64,000 nt of DNA from Escherichia coli (GTDB lineage Bacteria; Pseudomonadota; Gammaproteobacteria; Enterobacterales; Enterobacteriaceae), in assembly GCF_024502345.1 (NCBI RefSeq), contig NZ_JALDNN010000001.1. One strand, given 5' to 3'. The translations under genes were made by a program, and so were the position numbers. Of this stretch, positions 38,679-46,356 are shown one piece after another. The first letter of the stretch is position 1. Each line of letters begins with the position of its first letter. The notes beneath the pieces are model-generated. The model had not been told where the DNA came from and did no database searches. It saw nothing but the letters and a program-made list of their open reading frames with translations.

Positions 38679-39836
38679 TTACTTCGATGCAGTATCTGCG
38701 GGGGTATCGGTAGTGGCTTTAACCTGCTCTCCCGGACGCGCTTTTTGCAGGCCGCTGACAATGACTTGATCGCCAGATTTCAGACCTTCGCTAATCAACC
38801 ATTTATCGCCAATCGCCTGACTGGCAACGACAGGGCGCGCTTCCACCTGACTTTTATCGTTAACAATCAGCACGGTTGCATCACCACGCGGTGTGCGGCT
38901 AACGCCTTGTTGCGGGATAAGAATGGCGTCAGGTTGGACGCCTTCATCAATCCGTGCACGCACAAACATACCCGGCAAAAGCGTATGTTGCGGGTTAGGG
39001 AAGACAGCACGTAGGGTTATGGAGCCGGTGCTTTCATCAACGGTCACATCAGAGAATTGCAGCGTACCTTTCAGGGGATAGGTTTGACCGTTTTCCATGA
39101 CCAACTCTACGTTGCTGGTGGCGTTTTCCTTATGCAAATTTCCTTGCTCTACGGATTGCTTCAGCCTCATAAAATCGTTGCTGGATTGGGTCACATCAAC
39201 GTAGATAGGATCGAGCTGCTGGACAGTCGCCAGTTCAGTCGTTTGCCCATTAGTGACAAGAGCGCCTTCGGTCACGGTCGATTTGCCGATACGTCCGCTA
39301 ATTGGCGCAGTCACTTTGGTATAAGCGAGATTGATGCGAGCGCTTTCGACTGTGGCTTTTGCGGCAATCACGGCGGCATCGGCCTGGCGAGCATCAGCAA
39401 TGGCCTGGTCGTACTCCTGCTGGCTGATGTATTTCGTACCCACGAGCGGAACGTAACGTTTTACCGTCAAATGCGCGATGGCGGCGGCGGCTTCACTTTT
39501 CGCCAGTTCGCCTTTCGCGCTGTCATAATTTGCCTGATAGGTCGCGGGATCGATCTGGTACAGGGACTGGCCTGCTTGTACATCGCTGCCTTCAGTGAAA
39601 TTACGATTCAGTACGATCCCGCTAACCTGTGGGCGAACTTCGGCTATACGGTAAGCATTGGTGCGGCCTGGTAATTCAGTCTTAACTTCTAACGGGGCCG
39701 TTTTCACAATATGAACGGTAACCTGCGGTTCACCGACGTGAGCTTTCTCTTCTCCCTTATCGTTACAACCGGCGATTAAAGCCGCGGAGATCAGAATAAA
39801 GGAGGGCAGGAGGAAAAACCTGGCATGTTTCGTCAT
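38679..39836 (-). CDS. acrE: Periplasmic adaptor (membrane fusion) protein AcrE
   Basis: ORF track 385 aa with lipobox LIAGC. Confidence 0.96.
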   Translation of the reverse strand: MTKHARFFLLPSFILISAALIAGCNDKGEEKAHVGEPQVTVHIVKTAPLEVKTELPGRTNAYRIAEVRPQVSGIVLNRNFTEGSDVQAGQSLYQIDPATYQANYDSAKGELAKSEAAAAIAHLTVKRYVPLVGTKYISQQEYDQAIADARQADAAVIAAKATVESARINLAYTKVTAPISGRIGKSTVTEGALVTNGQTTELATVQQLDPIYVDVTQSSNDFMRLKQSVEQGNLHKENATSNVELVMENGQTYPLKGTLQFSDVTVDESTGSITLRAVFPNPQHTLLPGMFVRARIDEGVQPDAILIPQQGVSRTPRGDATVLIVNDKSQVEARPVVASQAIGDKWLISEGLKSGDQVIVSGLQKARPGEQVKATTDTPADTASK

Positions 39837-40258
39837 TACTATTCCTCAAAAAACCAAAAGCGCGTTATTTACCCAGAAAGGCAACGCGTTAACTCGCAGA
39901 AAGAAAAATACAGTTCGCTATCCTACAAATTATCATTCGTCGATGTAAGGAATAGTTATGAATACTGGCGTCTCAAGGCACATAAACACAAAAAAAGATT
40001 AATATTCTACTGTTTTATTTTGACGCGGGTTGAAAGAGGCAGAATTAAAACCTCGTAAATTGAAATATATATTCATGTGGCGAATGTATTTTAGGTAAAT
40101 AATATATATTATTTATTTGACGATTTATAGCAACTCAATGTTACCCTCTCGTATAAATACACATTAGATGATAGATTAACCTTCGCTATTTTCTCACCCT
40201 GTGTCGAATATATTTATTTCCTGAATAATTAATCATGGCAAAAAGAACCAAAGCCGAA

Positions 40259-40267
40259 GCTCTGAAG
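40259..40267. repeat. 9-bp target-site duplication GCTCTGAAG (left copy)
   Basis: Identical 9-mer directly flanks both IS ends. Confidence 0.9.
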
Positions 40268-40285
40268 GGCTTTGTTGAATAAATC
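40268..40285. repeat. IS903 left terminal inverted repeat
   Basis: GGCTTTGTTGAATAAATC. Confidence 0.9.
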
Positions 40286-40299
40286 GAACTTTTGCTGAG

Positions 40300-41268
40300 T
40301 TGAAGGATCAGATCACGTATCTTCCCGACAACGCAGACCGTTCCGTGGCAAAGCAAAAGTTCAAAATCACCAACTGGCCCACCTACAATAAAGCCCTCAT
40401 CAACCGTGGCTCCATAACTTTCTGGCTGGATGATGAAGCTATTCAGGCCTGGTATGAGTCAGCAACACCTTCTTCACGAGGCAGACCTCAGCGCTATTCT
40501 GACCTTGCCATCACGACTGTGCTGGTCATTAAACGCGTATTCAGGCTGACCCTGCGCGCTGCGCAGGGCTTTATTGATTCCATTTTTTCTCTGATGAACG
40601 TTCCGCTACGCTGCCCGGATTACAGCTGTGTCAGCAGGCGGGCAAAGTCGGTTAATGTCAGTTTCAAAACGCCCACCCGGGGTGAAATCGCACACCTGGT
40701 AATTGATTCCACCGGGCTGAAGGTCTTCGGTGAAGGCGAGTGGAAAGTCAAAAAGCATGGCCAGGAACGCCGCCGTATCTGGCGTAAGCTGCATCTCGCC
40801 GTTGACAGTAAAACACATGAAATCATCTGCGCTGACCTGTCGCTGAACAACGTTACGGACTCAGAGGCCTTCCCCGGGTTAATCCGGCAAACCCACCGGA
40901 AAATCAGGTCAGCCGCCGCCGATGGCGCTTACGATACCCGGCTATGTCACGATGAACTGCGGCGTAAGAAAATCAGCGCGCTTATCCCTCCCCGAAAAGG
41001 TGCGGGTTACTGGCCCGGTGAATATGCAGACCGTAACCGTGCAGTGGCTAATCAGCGAATGACCGGGAGTAATGCGCGGTGGAAATGGACAACAGATTAC
41101 AACCGTCGCTCGATAGCGGAAACGGCGATGTACCGGGTAAAACAGCTGTTCGGGGGTTCACTGACACTGCGTGACTACGATGGTCAGGTTGCAGAGGCTA
41201 TGGCCCTGGTACGAGCGCTGAACAAAATGACGAAAGCAGGTATGCCTGAAAGCGTGCGTATTGCCTGA
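40300..41268 (+). CDS. IS903-family DDE transposase
   Basis: ORF track 322 aa (MKDQITYLPDNADRSVAKQKFKITNWPTYNK...); the track start is a TTG codon, true initiation codon uncertain. Confidence 0.88.
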   Translation: MKDQITYLPDNADRSVAKQKFKITNWPTYNKALINRGSITFWLDDEAIQAWYESATPSSRGRPQRYSDLAITTVLVIKRVFRLTLRAAQGFIDSIFSLMNVPLRCPDYSCVSRRAKSVNVSFKTPTRGEIAHLVIDSTGLKVFGEGEWKVKKHGQERRRIWRKLHLAVDSKTHEIICADLSLNNVTDSEAFPGLIRQTHRKIRSAAADGAYDTRLCHDELRRKKISALIPPRKGAGYWPGEYADRNRAVANQRMTGSNARWKWTTDYNRRSIAETAMYRVKQLFGGSLTLRDYDGQVAEAMALVRALNKMTKAGMPESVRIA

Positions 41269-41306
41269 AAACACAACCCGCTACGGGGGAGACTTACCCG
41301 AAATCT

Positions 41307-41324
41307 GATTTATTCAACAAAGCC
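41307..41324. repeat. IS903 right terminal inverted repeat
   Basis: GATTTATTCAACAAAGCC, exact reverse complement of the left IR. Confidence 0.9.
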
Positions 41325-41333
41325 GCTCTGAAG
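41325..41333. repeat. 9-bp target-site duplication GCTCTGAAG (right copy)
   Basis: Identical to 40259-40267. Confidence 0.9.
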
Positions 41334-41965
41334 ACCCGGCAAGAACTGATTGAAACTGCCATCGCCCAGTTTGCGCAACATGGCGTAAGCAAGACGACGC
41401 TCAACGACATTGCCGATGCCGCTAACGTTACGCGTGGCGCTATCTACTGGCACTTCGAAAACAAGACTCAACTGTTTAATGAGATGTGGTTGCAACAGCC
41501 TTCATTGCGGGAGTTAATCCAGGAACACTTGACGGCTGGATTAGAGCATGACCCGTTTCAACAATTGCGTGAAAAATTGATTGTCGGCTTGCAATATATT
41601 GCCAAAATTCCCCGCCAGCAGGCGTTGCTGAAAATCTTATATCACAAATGTGAATTTAATGATGAGATGCTGGCCGAGGGAGTGATACGCGAAAAGATGG
41701 GCTTTAATCCGCAGACTCTCCGCGAAGTATTGCAGGCGTGTCAGCAACAAGGTTGTGTAGCAAATAACCTCGATTTAGATGTTGTGATGATTATTATTGA
41801 TGGTGCCTTCAGCGGAATTGTTCAAAACTGGTTAATGAATATGGCGGGTTATGATCTTTATAAACAAACCCCCGCTCTGGTCGATAACGTATTAAGAATG
41901 TTCATGCCAGATGAAAACATAACGAAATTAATTCATCAAACGAATGAATTAAGTGTCATGTAAAT

Positions 41966-42145
41966 TCACATTCTGTCCTGAAAATTCAGTTCGTCACAGT
42001 TAACCAGTTTTAGTGGATTAACTGAGTTCATATTACGGCATTTGTCTGTTTCTGTTGTCAGCAGTTCAATCCACTGCATCAGTAAAGTATCAAACAGAAA
42101 AACGAAGACAGCGAAAACGACGAGCCACCAATACTTGCGAATCAT
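41966..42145 (-). CDS. yhdU: Small membrane protein YhdU (59 aa)
   Basis: Start at internal ATG (MIRKYWWLVVFAVFVFLF...). Confidence 0.75.
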   Translation of the reverse strand: MIRKYWWLVVFAVFVFLFDTLLMQWIELLTTETDKCRNMNSVNPLKLVNCDELNFQDRM

Positions 42146-42228
42146 TACCTGAGCCTGTGCATGTTTAACCAAGTCTGGCAGGAAATATACACGAAATGAA
42201 TAATCTGAAAACCAGGCTTACACTTCCT

Positions 42229-43113
42229 TTACTTTGCAATGAGATCGGGGTCAACTTCGCTTAACCGGCTTCGTTTTGACAGGTTGCCGGTCTTTCTTTT
42301 TTTCACTTTCGCCAGTTCTTCCGCAGAGTAATGCGACGCGACATCCAGCCGTCGAAGCCCCATTTTGATGTACTCGCTGTTGATCTCAATACCAATGAAT
42401 TTTCGCCCGCTGGAGACGGCTACGGCACCGGTAGTAAAGCTACCGGCAAACGGGTCGAGAACGATATCGCCTGGGTTGGAAGAGGCGAGAATAATGCGTT
42501 TCAGTAAGGCTTCCGGTTTTTGCGTCGGGTGGTTTTCATATTCATCCATCAAATAACGCACGCGCGGAAAATCCCAGACGTTACCCGGTACTTTTTGATG
42601 ATTGTAAGGCTGTGGAGGATTTTTGCGATAATCGATCAACGCGCGCTGCGATCCGGTTTTGGCTTCTACCAGAATAGCATCACCGTTGAACGTGTAGTTC
42701 TTTGCGTCTTTCACCATCATCAGGATGGGTTCATACATGGAACCGTAGTGTTTTTTCGCCTGCACTCCAGAACTGTCATATGACCAGACGATGCGACTTT
42801 TGATGGTAAAAAGCTTGCGGCACTGGAGATCGATAAAGGGCATGTTTTCCGTACTGTTCATGATGTACATGCTGCCCTGCTTTTTCAGAACGCGGTGGCA
42901 CTCTGCAATCACTTCAAACAGCCAGTCGATAAACAGATCTTCTTTCCAGGCTTCGATCAGACCATCAAAATTTTTACCGATGTTATACGGTGGGTCGGCA
43001 AAGATCAGATCGACGCTTTCAGTAGGTAGCTTTTTAAGTTCGGCAAGGGCATCACCGTGAATAATGGTCTTAGCTTCATTACCAAACCGGGTCGGTTCAC
43101 ATCCTGTTCTCAT
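42229..43113 (-). CDS. yhdJ: DNA adenine (N6) methyltransferase YhdJ
   Basis: ORF track; DPPY catalytic motif (IFADPPYNIGK); start set at ATG 43111-43113. Confidence 0.92.
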   Translation of the reverse strand: MRTGCEPTRFGNEAKTIIHGDALAELKKLPTESVDLIFADPPYNIGKNFDGLIEAWKEDLFIDWLFEVIAECHRVLKKQGSMYIMNSTENMPFIDLQCRKLFTIKSRIVWSYDSSGVQAKKHYGSMYEPILMMVKDAKNYTFNGDAILVEAKTGSQRALIDYRKNPPQPYNHQKVPGNVWDFPRVRYLMDEYENHPTQKPEALLKRIILASSNPGDIVLDPFAGSFTTGAVAVSSGRKFIGIEINSEYIKMGLRRLDVASHYSAEELAKVKKRKTGNLSKRSRLSEVDPDLIAK

Positions 43114-43132
43114 GGTCACTCCCTTTGTGACA

Positions 43133-43177
43133 CCTATAAAAAAGGCGCTTCCCCATGCCGAGTAGCGCCTTTTTAAT
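43133..43177 (-). terminator. Intrinsic terminator that in K-12-like genomes lies directly after fis; here on the far side of the insertion
   Basis: 8-bp stem AAGGCGCT / AGCGCCTT with 14-nt loop, T-tracts on both sides. Confidence 0.7.
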
Positions 43178-43197
43178 CAAGCATTTAGCTAACCTGA

Positions 43198-43214
43198 ATT
43201 AGTTCATGCCGTAT
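43198..43214. repeat. 17-bp direct repeat TTAGTTCATGCCGTATT, distal att-like copy
   Basis: 17/17 identical to 45069-45085, which is the fis stop codon plus last codons. Confidence 0.85.
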
Positions 43215-43382
43215 TGTAAAATACAGAGTCATTATACGTAATTTATTATCACTCTAGATAATTTGTATTCATCATAAATAATTGATGCGGAAAGAGATAT
43301 TTATTTTTTATTGGCTCGCATTGTATCATCAGTTATCAGTTACTCCCTGCATACAGTTGTCAAAAAGGTTGTCATTAACTCT

Positions 43383-43551
43383 ATGGCCGAAAATAAACTC
43401 TCAGATGTTCAATTGCGTGCGTTAACCCGCAAAGTCATCGAAAAACCTTTTGATGTTGCTGACGGTGGCCAAGTTGGGTGAAAACCTGCTATGCAGCTAC
43501 CGCATAAGGGTAGTGGATTCCGCTGAAATCTTGCCGTTCATCCGATCATAA
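43383..43551 (+). pseudogene. Tyrosine-integrase N-terminal (arm-type DNA-binding domain) fragment, frameshifted and truncated
   Basis: Hand translation: MAENKLSDVQLRALTRKVIEKPFDVADGGQVG-stop, then +1 frame LGENLLCSYRIRVVDSAEILPFIRS; resembles the EKPY..DG(N/G)GLYL...WxxRY pattern of P4-type integrase N-termini. Confidence 0.45.
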
Positions 43552-43575
43552 CATCACAACAGTTGTTGCCCATTA

Positions 43576-43606
43576 CCCTGGCGAATGCCGGGGCTTTTTT
43601 TATTTT
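43576..43606 (+). terminator. Candidate intrinsic terminator downstream of the integrase fragment
   Basis: Imperfect stem CCCTGG..CCGGGG followed by CTTTTTTTATTTT. Confidence 0.3.
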
Positions 43607-43619
43607 CAAAGTGACGCCT

Positions 43620-43923
43620 AGGTGTCATTAATTTATAAGGTGTCATGGTAGGTGTCATTGTTCTCAAGCCATAACCCGCAAGGGTTGCGACATTACTAAT
43701 GACACCTATGACACCTATGACAGCATTTTTAAAGAAAATAACGACCACTGTAATAATGTAACAGTGGTCGTTATACTTTATAGAAATGGGTGTCATGGTG
43801 TCACAGGTGTCATTCATTACAGTATCTTGTTTGTATTTTTCTTTAATAATCAGCGTGTTTCCCGCTATGACACCTAATGACACCTTTCCAACATAACGCC
43901 GTCATGGTGACATTAGGTGTCAT
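43620..43923. repeat. Array of 13 copies of the 9-bp motif AGGTGTCAT in both orientations
   Basis: Forward copies at 43620, 43638, 43650, 43789, 43797 (GGTGTCAC), 43805, 43906 (GGTGACAT), 43915; reverse ATGACACCT at 43699, 43708, 43717 (degenerate), 43867, 43877. Confidence 0.85.
43738..43774. repeat. Perfect palindrome with 14-bp arms and 9-nt AT-rich loop, at the centre of the motif array
   Basis: ATAACGACCACTGT-AATAATGTA-ACAGTGGTCGTTAT. Confidence 0.85.
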
Positions 43924-44274
43924 CGCCATCTGCTGCCAAAAAAGTCAAGGTACTTCCGAGGGGGGTACAGCCTGCGGGGGCATTGGTCCCGCGTAATTCG
44001 CGTTGTGCGTGCCCCTACAAAACTCACTTTATGATTACGTCAAGTAAATCAATCATTTATGTGAATCCTATCAAAGCACTGGCACCATACGTGCGCGATT
44101 GCAAAATAAAGCGAACACGTTTTACACACGCTGAATTGTAAAGATGTGTAAATATCGATTACGCCGGATTATGCCGGGTTATTTGCAAGTATTCAGGGTT
44201 ATAAGTTACTGATTTTACATTAAAAAGCTCACATTGTGGCTATTGTGTTCGGTCTGGTTACTGTATATCTTTAA

Positions 44275-44991
44275 GTCATTCCAGGCGATTTAGCTGGCCT
44301 GGCGCTGGCAGGTTATCAGATTTACCGCCATTGGGCTGGTGTGAAGGCTTTCTTTGGCGGAGTGGGTGAAGGCATCAAATCCGGGCTGGAACCGCTTAGC
44401 GACGCTCTGAGCCGCCTTTATGAACGCATGGGGCCGCTGAAACCTGTCATTGATGGTGTGGGTGCTGCGGTTAAGACGGTTTTCAACTGGTTCACGTCAT
44501 TGACCGAGCCGGTCAAGTACAGTGGCGAGGAACTGGATAAGGCCGGTAAAATGGGGATGACGTTCGGTAAGACCCTGGCGGCTGGCATCGAGCTTGTGAC
44601 CGCACCGATCACGTTCCTGATTGATAAGATTCTGTGGGTGTCTGACAACATCGGCAACCTGACCAACAAGGCACTGGAGTTTAAAAACGCCGTGTCTGAT
44701 GTTGCTGGTGGTGCGTGGCAGAAAACCAAAGATTTCTTTACCGCACCATTCCGCGACGATGTACAGCAGCCAGCAGCAACCACTGCCTCTGGTGCTGCCC
44801 TGCCGTCACCTGCACTGGCCAACCGCTCTGGTGGCACTACGGTGCATAGCAACGACCAGTACCACATCAGCGTGAAGGCAGAACCTGGTATGAATGAAGA
44901 TGCATTAGCCCGGAAGGTGATACAGCAACTACGACAGCAACAAGCAGTAAGGCAGCGAAGCATGATGATAGATGGCGCGCAAACACCATAA
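44275..44991 (+). pseudogene. 5'-truncated ORF, possibly a phage tail tape-measure-like protein C-terminal region
   Basis: Frame is open from 44275 (stop at 44272-44274) with no good start or RBS; Gly/Ala-rich and hydrophobic segments (GVGAAVKTVFNWF, ITFLIDKILWV); product guessed from composition only. Confidence 0.35.
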
Positions 44992-45068
44992 GGGTTGTCA
45001 GTACGGTTGCAACAAAAAGTAAAGGGACTGAAATAGCCCCTTTAATTTCATGCCGTTACAGCTTGACT

Positions 45069-45085
45069 TTAGTTCATGCCGTATT
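45069..45085. repeat. 17-bp direct repeat TTAGTTCATGCCGTATT, fis-proximal att-like copy overlapping the fis stop codon
   Basis: Reverse complement encodes ..K-Y-G-M-N-stop of Fis. Confidence 0.85.
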
Positions 45086-45365
45086 TTTTCAATTTTTTAC
45101 GCAGCGTACCACGGTTGATGCCCATCATCAGCGCAGCACGGGTCTGGTTACCACGGGTGTATTGCATCACCATGTCCAACAGGGGCTGTTCTACTTCAGC
45201 CAGTACCAGCTCATAGAGGTCATTCACATCCTGACCATTCAGTTGAGCAAAATAGTTCTTCAGTGCCTGTTTAACCGAGTCACGCAGGGGTTTTTGGGTT
45301 ACCTGATCCTGAGAGTTAACGGTAGAAACGGTCAGTACGTCAGAATTTACGCGTTGTTCGAACAT
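45069..45365 (-). CDS. fis: DNA-binding nucleoid protein Fis
   Basis: ORF track 98 aa [51 protein letters not shown]... Confidence 0.97.
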
Positions 45366-45390
45366 AGTTCTGTCAGCTCTTTATTTCTGT

Positions 45391-46356
45391 TTACGCAAAA
45401 TTTTCGAAGTATGCCTCCAACGCCTCCAGCTGTTCGCTGGCATCCTCAATGGCGTTGAATGTGCGCCGAAACTGGTCATTGGGAGCGTGTTCCTGGAGAT
45501 ACCAGGAAACGTGTTTACGTGCAATTCGGTACCCTTTTGCCGGACCATAAAAGTCATGCAGTTCCCGAACGTGCGCGCAAAGCAAGCGCTTAACCTCTGC
45601 CAAAGGCAGCGGGGGCAGCAACTCCCCAGTGTCCAGATAATGCTGGATTTCCCGAAAGATCCAGGGTCTTCCCTGAGCTGCGCGGCCTATCATCAGGGCA
45701 TCCGCCCCTGTATAGTCGAGCACAGCTCTGGCTTTAAGCGGGTCAGTAATGTCGCCATTCGCGATAACCGGAATGGAAACTTTCTGCTTAACTGCCTGAA
45801 TACTGTCGTACTCAGCTTCTCCATTGAACAAACAGGCGCGTGTACGGCCATGAATGGTCAGAGCCTGAATGCCACAGTCTTCAGCCAGTTGGGCAATCTC
45901 TTCGCAGTTACGGTGTTCCGGCGCCCAGCCAGTGCGAATCTTCAGGGTAACAGGAACGTCCACTGCATTGACGACCTCGGTAAGGATCGATTTAACGACT
46001 TCCGGGTACTGCAAGAGGGCTGAACCTGCGAGCTTGCGATTCACTTTTTTAGCCGGGCAACCCATATTGATATCAATAATCTGGGCACCGCTTTCCACGT
46101 TAATACGTGCTGCATCTGCCATTTCTTTCGGATCGCTACCGGCAATTTGCACGGTGCGAATACCGGGTTCATCAATGTGCACCATCCGTAAACGAGATTT
46201 ATCGCTTTCCCAAACTTGTGGGTTAGAAGACATCATCTCGGATACTGTCAATCCGGCTCCCATCTCGTAGCACAACGTCCGAAAAGGTCTGTCTGTAATG
46301 CCAGCCATGGGCGCTGCGATCAGGCGATTTCTGAGCTGATATTGTCCGATGCGCAT
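45391..46356 (-). CDS. dusB: tRNA-dihydrouridine synthase B
   Basis: ORF track 321 aa; upstream gene of the dusB-fis operon. Confidence 0.95.

Follow-up and report, generated by a model that had tools for sequence, protein, structure and literature searches.

A decayed phage satellite at the 3' end of Escherichia coli fis carries a predicted replacement terminator

The fis locus and its displaced terminator

The DNA analysed in this study, referred to below as the window, is a stretch of 64,000 nucleotides of an Escherichia coli contig (NZ_JALDNN010000001.1, assembly GCF_024502345.1), and it includes the genes dusB, fis and yhdJ (Table 1). The fis gene is intact, and its product is identical to the annotated Fis protein of E. 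coli 13P484A. An inverted repeat with the features of an intrinsic terminator is located near yhdJ: its 14-nt arms (43136-43149 and 43164-43177) are 93% complementary, a UUUUUU tract comes after them on the minus strand, and the predicted fold has an energy of -19.7 kcal/mol (z = -4.2). Between the fis stop codon and this repeat there is an insert of 1,870 bp. Because Fis acts as a global regulator that is sensitive to dosage and controlled by growth phase, an insertion placed directly past its stop codon looks alarming.

The empty site was rebuilt in silico by joining positions 43050-43215 to 45086-45235. With fis and yhdJ as the flanks, 5,309 of the 5,426 complete E. coli genomes had a match covering 80% or more of the resulting sequence; the matches among those listed were full-length and showed 97.5-100% identity. 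The hairpin starts 21 nt past the fis stop codon in the genomes with an empty site, and because it is adjacent to fis there we regard it as the native fis terminator. A natural rho-independent terminator after fis is also mentioned in published accounts. The fis 3' end is not listed, even for K-12, in the Term-seq supplements that were searched, so that the native terminator is recognized from its conservation and from the published statements. A previous reading, made from the sequence alone, had claimed that fis is parted from this terminator, and this is indeed the case, the distance from the stop codon being 1,892 nt in the window.

At each end of the insert stands one copy of an exact 17-bp direct repeat, TTAGTTCATGCCGTATT, which contains the identity block TACGGCATGAACTAA published for fis PICIs. 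Since the repeat includes the stop codon and the last codons of fis, the coding sequence has been reconstituted at the fis-proximal end, and all 98 amino acids are retained, in agreement with the earlier proposal that a duplicated core preserves the Fis coding sequence.

Table 1. Features of the fis region, in window coordinates
Feature	Position	Strand	Remarks
yhdJ	42229..43119	-	same strand as fis
Native (K-12-type) fis intrinsic terminator	43136..43177	-	inverted repeat; just upstream of yhdJ
att identity block, yhdJ/integrase side	43199..43215		relic copy of last fis codons and stop
5' fragment of PICI tyrosine integrase gene	43383..43469	+	29 codons
Deletion junction 1	43466..43469		microhomology TGGC (4 nt); lost: L001 11477-15209
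Iteron-like array, GGTGTCAT / ATGACACC	43617..43926		10 copies, both orientations
Intergenic region before first late-zone gene of intact PICI	43927..44290	+	
Deletion junction 2	44291..44292		microhomology TA (2 nt); lost: L001 16037-20000
C-terminal ~233 codons of tail tape-measure gene	44291..44991	+	convergent with fis
Element-borne terminator hairpin (predicted)	45013..45044	-	terminator scan, fold, conservation
att identity block, fis-proximal	45069..45085		gives last five codons and stop of functional fis
fis stop codon	45069-45071	-	
fis	45069..45365	-	intact, 98 aa
dusB	45391..46356		upstream of fis

A doubly deleted fis PICI

The junction found on the fis side of the insert is also present in 63 complete E. 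coli genomes, where it forms part of an element of about 9.6 kb lying between yhdJ and fis. This intact element encodes, in order, a tyrosine integrase that has an arm-binding domain (DUF4102), a regulator/excisionase of the AlpA type, a protein of 93 aa and a VapE-type primase/helicase, followed by iterons, several small ORFs and a 762-aa tape-measure protein, whose gene converges on fis. The 762-aa protein matches phrog_28 (tail length tape measure, E = 2.7e-103) and also Pfam PF10145.

When compared with the intact element of E. coli 13P484A (locus L001), the window aligns as three collinear blocks with 98.7-99.5% identity: window 42001-43469 corresponds to L001 10008-11476, window 43466-44292 to L001 15210-16036, and window 44291 onward to L001 20001 onward. 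By the first of the two deletions separating these blocks, most of int was lost together with alpA, a hypothetical gene and the VapE-type primase/helicase gene; the second took away the late-zone genes together with the first two-thirds of the tape-measure gene. The insert is thus what two deletions have left of a ~9.6-kb phage satellite, now dead, that belonged to the published class of fis PICIs, and the sequence-only reading was right to see a decayed mobile element in it.

Several parts of the satellite can still be recognized. The reading frame of the integrase fragment continues to a stop codon at 43481, and its translation agrees with the integrase N-terminus as far as the deletion junction; the end of a 74-aa gene is also retained. 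The iteron-like motif occurs 10 times in the array and four times elsewhere in the window (62 kb). In intact relatives, L001 included, the array lies downstream of the replication (VapE) gene, and it may represent the PICI replication origin. This array is what the earlier reading had described as a motif array. A GC-rich patch (GC content 0.53-0.56) is found at ~43950-44020, in the intergenic region that precedes the late zone.

With regard to the features of the fis PICI class, the identity block TACGGCATGAACTAA is present at both ends of the insert at the fis 3' terminus, and descent from a catalogued member is evident from nucleotide identity. The integrase and AlpA are both encoded by the intact parent-type element, but the window copy has only the 29 int codons and has lost alpA; in place of a primase/helicase with an adjacent origin, only the iteron-like array is kept. 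With int mostly gone and alpA deleted, the window copy is a remnant and not a functional member of the class. It can no longer move by itself, because the integrase, alpA, the primase/helicase and all complete late genes are missing.

We know of no helper phage for the fis PICIs of the tape-measure type. The class itself is well catalogued: 3,565 fis genomic islands, which carry the identity block TACGGCATGAACTAA, have been recognized as PICIs (Tommasini, Mageeney & Williams 2023, NAR Genom Bioinform 5:lqad036; PMC10111431), and the intact form of the element studied here is listed as Eco5953.10.fis of E. coli strain 127 (CP023377.1:515660-525232; PMC10111431). Positions 44291-45400 of the window are 100% identical to CP023377.1. 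The remnant and Eco5953.10.fis share the integration site, the identity block, the fis-proximal hairpin and the orientation (integrase end to yhdJ, late end to fis), with 98.7-100% nucleotide identity over the retained blocks; the difference between them is the loss from the remnant of ~7.7 kb by two microhomology-mediated deletions (TGGC and TA). The element in the window is therefore of a kind already known, a decayed member of its class. Its double deletion was found in none of the 5,426 complete E. coli genomes. A 2.4-kb remnant from a metagenome (L063) carries a single, independent deletion different from those of the window, and fis islands under 4 kb that lack alpA have been published (PMC10111431). 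Excision and replication after mitomycin C treatment have been shown experimentally for only one other fis PICI, Kpn47.16.fis (cited in PMC10111431).

The same architecture was found beside fis in Cronobacter (integrase identity of 88%), Salmonella (78%), two Logan contigs (60%), Klebsiella michiganensis (59%), a Logan contig with a tandem array (57%) and several metagenome and viral contigs, so that integrase identity ranges from 57 to 100% across the relatives examined. The empty site is absent from 117 of the 5,426 complete E. coli genomes, and elements at the fis site occupy about 2% of the E. coli genomes in this set. A scan of genome contigs from species-representative genomes with the intact integrase yielded no confirmed relative, and these genomes are evidently without this element. 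In a contig scan for AATACGGCATGAACTAAA, most of the hits were to gammaproteobacteria of marine origin (Vibrio, Photobacterium, Alteromonas, Shewanella), with a few to unrelated taxa; they seemed unlike element junctions, and the scan was uninformative.

The element-borne hairpin downstream of fis

The noncoding end of the element adjacent to fis contains a second terminator-like structure. On the fis-sense strand (45044..45020) it reads UAAAGGGGCU-AUUUC-AGUCCCUUUA followed by CUUUUUGUUG, which has the form of an intrinsic terminator, with a GGGGCU/AGUCCC stem, an AAA/UUU extension and a loop of 5 nt, after which UUUACUUUUUG follows. The hairpin begins 24 nt past the fis stop codon and its GC core lies 28 nt past it, the latter distance, as counted from the sequence, being identical for the native terminator. 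In a consensus scan of positions 42900-45500, this was the sole minus-strand terminator-like site in 2.6 kb, against an expectation of 2.4 sites per 5.2 kb of strand; by our own arithmetic, the chance that such a site starts no more than 40 nt after a given stop codon and on the right strand is ~2%. The hairpin folds on the fis strand with -13.7 kcal/mol (z = -4.15). The 56-nt fold of the opposite strand is unremarkable (z = -0.6), because a G·U pair of the stem becomes an A·C mismatch there.

The GGGGC/GCCCC stem and the T-run occur at the same offset in all ten fis-adjacent loci of the tape-measure-type element (nine distinct sequences; E. coli, Cronobacter, Salmonella, Klebsiella and metagenomes), which differ from each other in their apical pairs, in the loop (3-7 nt) and in the 24-nt spacer. 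A covariance model built on six element hairpins recovered the structure in each of these ten loci, and it weakly detected native fis terminators of the Klebsiella type (E about 0.01). It missed the tandem-internal junction of L009, which has the same stem and a weaker T-run; the T-tract of another relative (L008) is poor. The hairpins were aligned by the covariance model, since MAFFT misplaced the 3' arm in sequences with shorter loops. Pair counting showed 95.6% of cells to be paired and seven of ten pairs to be invariant, with one compensatory change (U-A to C-G) and one single-sided change (G-C to G·U, the window allele). None of the covariation measures applied to the hairpin exceeded the shuffle control. 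Covariation being weak, the support for the hairpin comes from its conservation, its position and the strand asymmetry of its U-tract. The similarity between the element-borne and native flanks is marginal (19-72 of 2,000 shuffles reach it) and is only suggestive of homology.

An Rfam scan of positions 42900-45500 gave sub-threshold hits only, all of which were rejected: the miRNA families fell on the iteron palindrome, and STnc40 and GibS were aligned only via a generic AAAGGCGC...GCGCCUUUUUU terminator.

It is quite probable, in our judgement, that the fis PICI remnant carries a replacement terminator, and that fis transcripts end near their normal site with no run-on of 1.9 kb. The fis PICIs integrate by tyrosine-integrase recombination within the last fis codons, and their attachment site brings with it a substitute for all that lies downstream of the crossover: the final codons of fis with the stop, a spacer of about 25 nt, and a hairpin of the intrinsic-terminator kind with a U-tract in the fis sense. 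As the attachment site carries this replacement hairpin, dusB-fis transcripts are expected to end at the element-borne structure, at about position 45015. That the hairpin terminates fis transcription, and with what efficiency, we infer from its sequence features. The predicted fis 3' UTR, as counted from the sequence, would be ~53 nt long, compared with ~62 nt for the native one.

The sequence-only reading had concluded that fis transcripts must either end at cryptic sites or run through the element, and that the length of the 3' UTR is changed. The hairpin and U-tract that the element places 24 nt past the stop codon, and the similar predicted lengths of the two 3' UTRs, speak against both statements. 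A new terminator just inside the element, which that reading had itself named as the finding that would contradict it, is what we see at this position, as far as can be judged from DNA. The sequence gives no support to a loss of terminator function by fis or to the gain of a long 3' UTR.

What could still speak for read-through is the predicted strength of the window hairpin. The window carries a minority G·U (T) allele. Among 47 complete E. coli genomes matching the 77-nt element end, eight have the window sequence and 39 do not; in one of the latter that was inspected, the sole change was T-to-C, which turns the G·U pair into G-C. The intact element of E. coli 13P484A has the T allele, for example, and that of FDAARGOS_433 the C allele. 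For the core hairpin, energies of -7.3, -10.0 and -14.0 kcal/mol were obtained with the window allele, the common allele and the native terminator, respectively, and the U-tract of the window allele is interrupted (UUUACUUUUU). The three scored -10.6, +4.7 and +18.5, respectively, on a scale of the d'Aubenton-Carafa type combined with modern energy parameters; these uncalibrated values serve for ranking only, with no threshold applied. The G·U allele is therefore predicted to be a weaker terminator than the native one. In addition, the scan found no further minus-strand terminator-like site between 45013 and 43177. The insertion might thus leave fis without an effective terminator, and transcripts would then be read through, antisense to the tape-measure fragment, until they meet Rho or the old terminator, with a longer 3' UTR and an altered mRNA stability or Fis level. 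We consider this unlikely, taking into account that a hairpin with a U-tract stands exactly at the native-equivalent place and is conserved throughout the family. Moreover, the G·U allele is found in the intact elements of the eight complete E. coli genomes (39 have the stronger allele), and the site is occupied in ~2% of E. coli genomes and by the 3,565 catalogued islands. Since elements at the fis site are so frequent, gross misregulation of the global regulator is improbable.

A replacement terminator of reduced efficiency would be a milder variant, and it is possible that the weaker G·U hairpin allows partial read-through. If the allele is leaky, a growth-phase-dependent share of the abundant dusB-fis transcripts of the early exponential phase would read antisense into the late region, a proposal that we regard as doubtful and even a little less likely than the general failure of termination. 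If true, the remnant would give rise to fis mRNAs that have a long 3' UTR and differ in stability, while in intact elements the silencing of late genes would be coupled to the Fis expression cycle of the host. At ~44300-44650 the minus strand is C-rich (plus-strand GC skew of +0.1 to +0.32), and any read-through RNA, untranslated and crossing this segment, might suit Rho.

Other fis-site elements and comparable integration systems

A second lineage of fis PICIs (loci L064-L067) shares this fis attachment site and likewise has a terminator right after the rebuilt fis stop codon, which in this lineage becomes TGA. Its integrase is ~54% identical, and it differs in its gene content: a capsid-protease fusion, a replication protein with an AAA_25 or DUF927 domain, and Abi_C cargo, the Abi_C gene being the neighbour of fis and co-oriented with it. 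The fis-proximal end of these elements holds a near-copy of a native-type fis terminator (AAAAGGCGCUCUUCGGCAUGGGGAAGCGCCUUUUUUAUU). This terminator is Klebsiella-like with a 26-nt stem-loop, in contrast to the short GGGGC/GCCCC hairpin of the tape-measure-type elements, and in the E. coli hosts it differs from the host's own terminator, which is kept at the integrase end. The presence of this copy is the strongest independent support for the proposed role of the element ends as surrogate terminators. The hairpin motif aaaggcgc appears 167 times in the published alignment file of fis-proximal att sites (PMC10111431). A 42-kb Salmonella fis PICI has yet another hairpin with a T-run; all lineages keep a predicted terminator directly after fis.

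These data bear on two further readings of the hairpin. It lies 29 nt past the stop codon of the tape-measure gene (44991), between convergent genes, flanked by an A-tract and, on the opposite side, a U-tract, as in bidirectional terminators, and the stem energies of the common allele are about equal on both strands. The structure could therefore mainly end the late operon of the satellite itself, its place after fis being incidental. The two terminator functions are not mutually exclusive. As the principal role, however, this is very unlikely: each of the six fis-adjacent lineages compared has its better U-tract score on the fis-sense strand, the opposite-strand hairpin of the window allele contains the A·C mismatch and reaches only -4.2 kcal/mol, and in the second lineage a fis-type terminator is still found between fis and Abi_C, despite their common orientation.

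The conserved palindrome might also be a protein-binding part of the attachment site (for the integrase, AlpA or IHF) and not a transcription signal, considering that it is situated within ~50 bp of the crossover region and that its stem is almost invariant rather than covarying. Such a role is the least credible of those considered here, and we give it hardly any weight. The T-run following the palindrome is also conserved, and asymmetrically with respect to strand, whereas the hairpin of the second lineage has a different sequence that copies a host terminator, and that of the 42-kb Salmonella element is different again. Because hairpin sequences differ by lineage, it is the structure and the U-tract that have been kept, and no single binding sequence.

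Under the preferred explanation, that of a replacement terminator, the insertion after fis is probably harmless: the host gene would keep a near-normal transcript end because the attachment site of the satellites includes a surrogate for its 3' UTR and terminator. The locus would thus be a clear example of how an important gene can be occupied at its 3' end by integrative elements without much cost. For genome annotation, it indicates that a displaced native terminator alone does not imply read-through.

The element-borne structure can be compared with the native K-12 dusB-fis terminator. Both consist of a hairpin and a U-tract with the GC stem at the same distance from the stop codon, and they have the flanking motif AAAGG-GC ... 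GC-CCUUU in common. The native stem-loop comprises 26 nt and precedes an uninterrupted UUUUUU, whereas that of the window comprises 17 nt, contains a G·U pair and is followed by UUUACUUUUU.

Similar arrangements are known from other target genes. Phage 21 and e14 integrate at icd. Elements that cross over inside the 3' end of a gene supply a surrogate end, and icd and many tRNA genes have been cited in this respect (PMC10111431). The principle is the same at fis, where the target gene stays functional through the end supplied by the element. Unlike in the icd and tRNA cases, only five codons are replaced here, and the contribution of the element would consist mainly of the 3' UTR and terminator of a protein-coding gene, one that encodes a global regulator.

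Genes carried by the fis satellites

The last gene of the intact tape-measure-type fis PICI subtype, represented by locus L001 of E. coli 13P484A, encodes a full-length tail tape-measure protein of 762 aa, which matches phrog_28 (E = 2.7e-103) and PF10145. No capsid, terminase or packaging genes were recognisable in this element, and among its late-zone proteins compared with PHROG, five of those tested gave no match. The term 'tape measure' does not occur in the main text of the fis-PICI catalogue paper (PMC10111431). Possible roles for a tape-measure gene standing alone in a 9.6-kb satellite are a change in tail length or interference with the helper.

In the second fis-PICI lineage (loci L065 and L066), the cargo adjoining fis encodes an Abi_C-domain protein and is likely to be an abortive-infection or defence gene. 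It lies approximately 175 nt downstream of fis, just past the surrogate terminator, i.e. the element-borne hairpin and U-tract that directly follows fis; if this terminator were leaky in the second lineage, the Abi_C gene would come under fis read-through.

Positions of the features discussed
Feature	Sequence	Position	Remark
Intact relative	L001	11390-20701	
Surviving part of tape-measure gene	window	44291-44991	only this part survives
Abi_C-domain protein gene	L065	19548-20309	fis strand
Abi_C-domain protein gene	L066	16977-17741	fis strand
Imperfect palindrome	window	43698-43814	inside iteron array
Degenerate second att-core copy	window	45042-45056	
IS5-family insertion sequence	window	40268-41324	1,057 bp
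Transposase ORF of this insertion sequence	window	40300..41268	322 aa
Tandem array at fis	L009	13872-15757	

Repeats within the remnant

The iteron array of the window contains a large imperfect palindrome, whose arms (AATGACACCTATGACACC and GGTGTCACAGGTGTCATT) enclose a 28-nt inverted repeat. Sub-threshold Rfam matches to plant miRNAs in this region are spurious and come from the palindrome. Other genomes have a 109-aa minus-strand ORF annotated across it, which is unlikely to be a real gene. The surrogate hairpin shares part of its 5' arm with a second, degenerate att-core copy (TTAATTTCATGCCGT vs TTAGTTCATGCCGT), which is located 26 nt into the element and was seen only in the E. coli variant. 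This copy could be a relic, or it could serve the integrase as a core-type site.

Insertion sequence in acrS

The gene acrS (envR) encodes the protein that represses the acrEF efflux operon. The 5' end of this gene is interrupted by an IS5-family insertion sequence flanked by a 9-bp target duplication, which we take, from its size and the duplication, to be IS903-like. Counted as an IS5-family transposase within acrS in complete E. coli genomes matching at least 80% of window 39300-42300, such an interruption was found in 2 of 5,426, both 95-97% identical to this region in three to four pieces.

Tandem arrays at fis

One Logan (SRA-derived) contig, L009, carries a tandem array at fis, in which a second integrase gene comes after the tape-measure-type PICI; the internal hybrid att site has its own, weaker hairpin. 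In the published alignment entry fis.Eco9562.16.fis, the sequence immediately after a 16-kb PICI is that of a tape-measure-type element at its fis-proximal end (PMC10111431), and we read this entry as a putative tandem.
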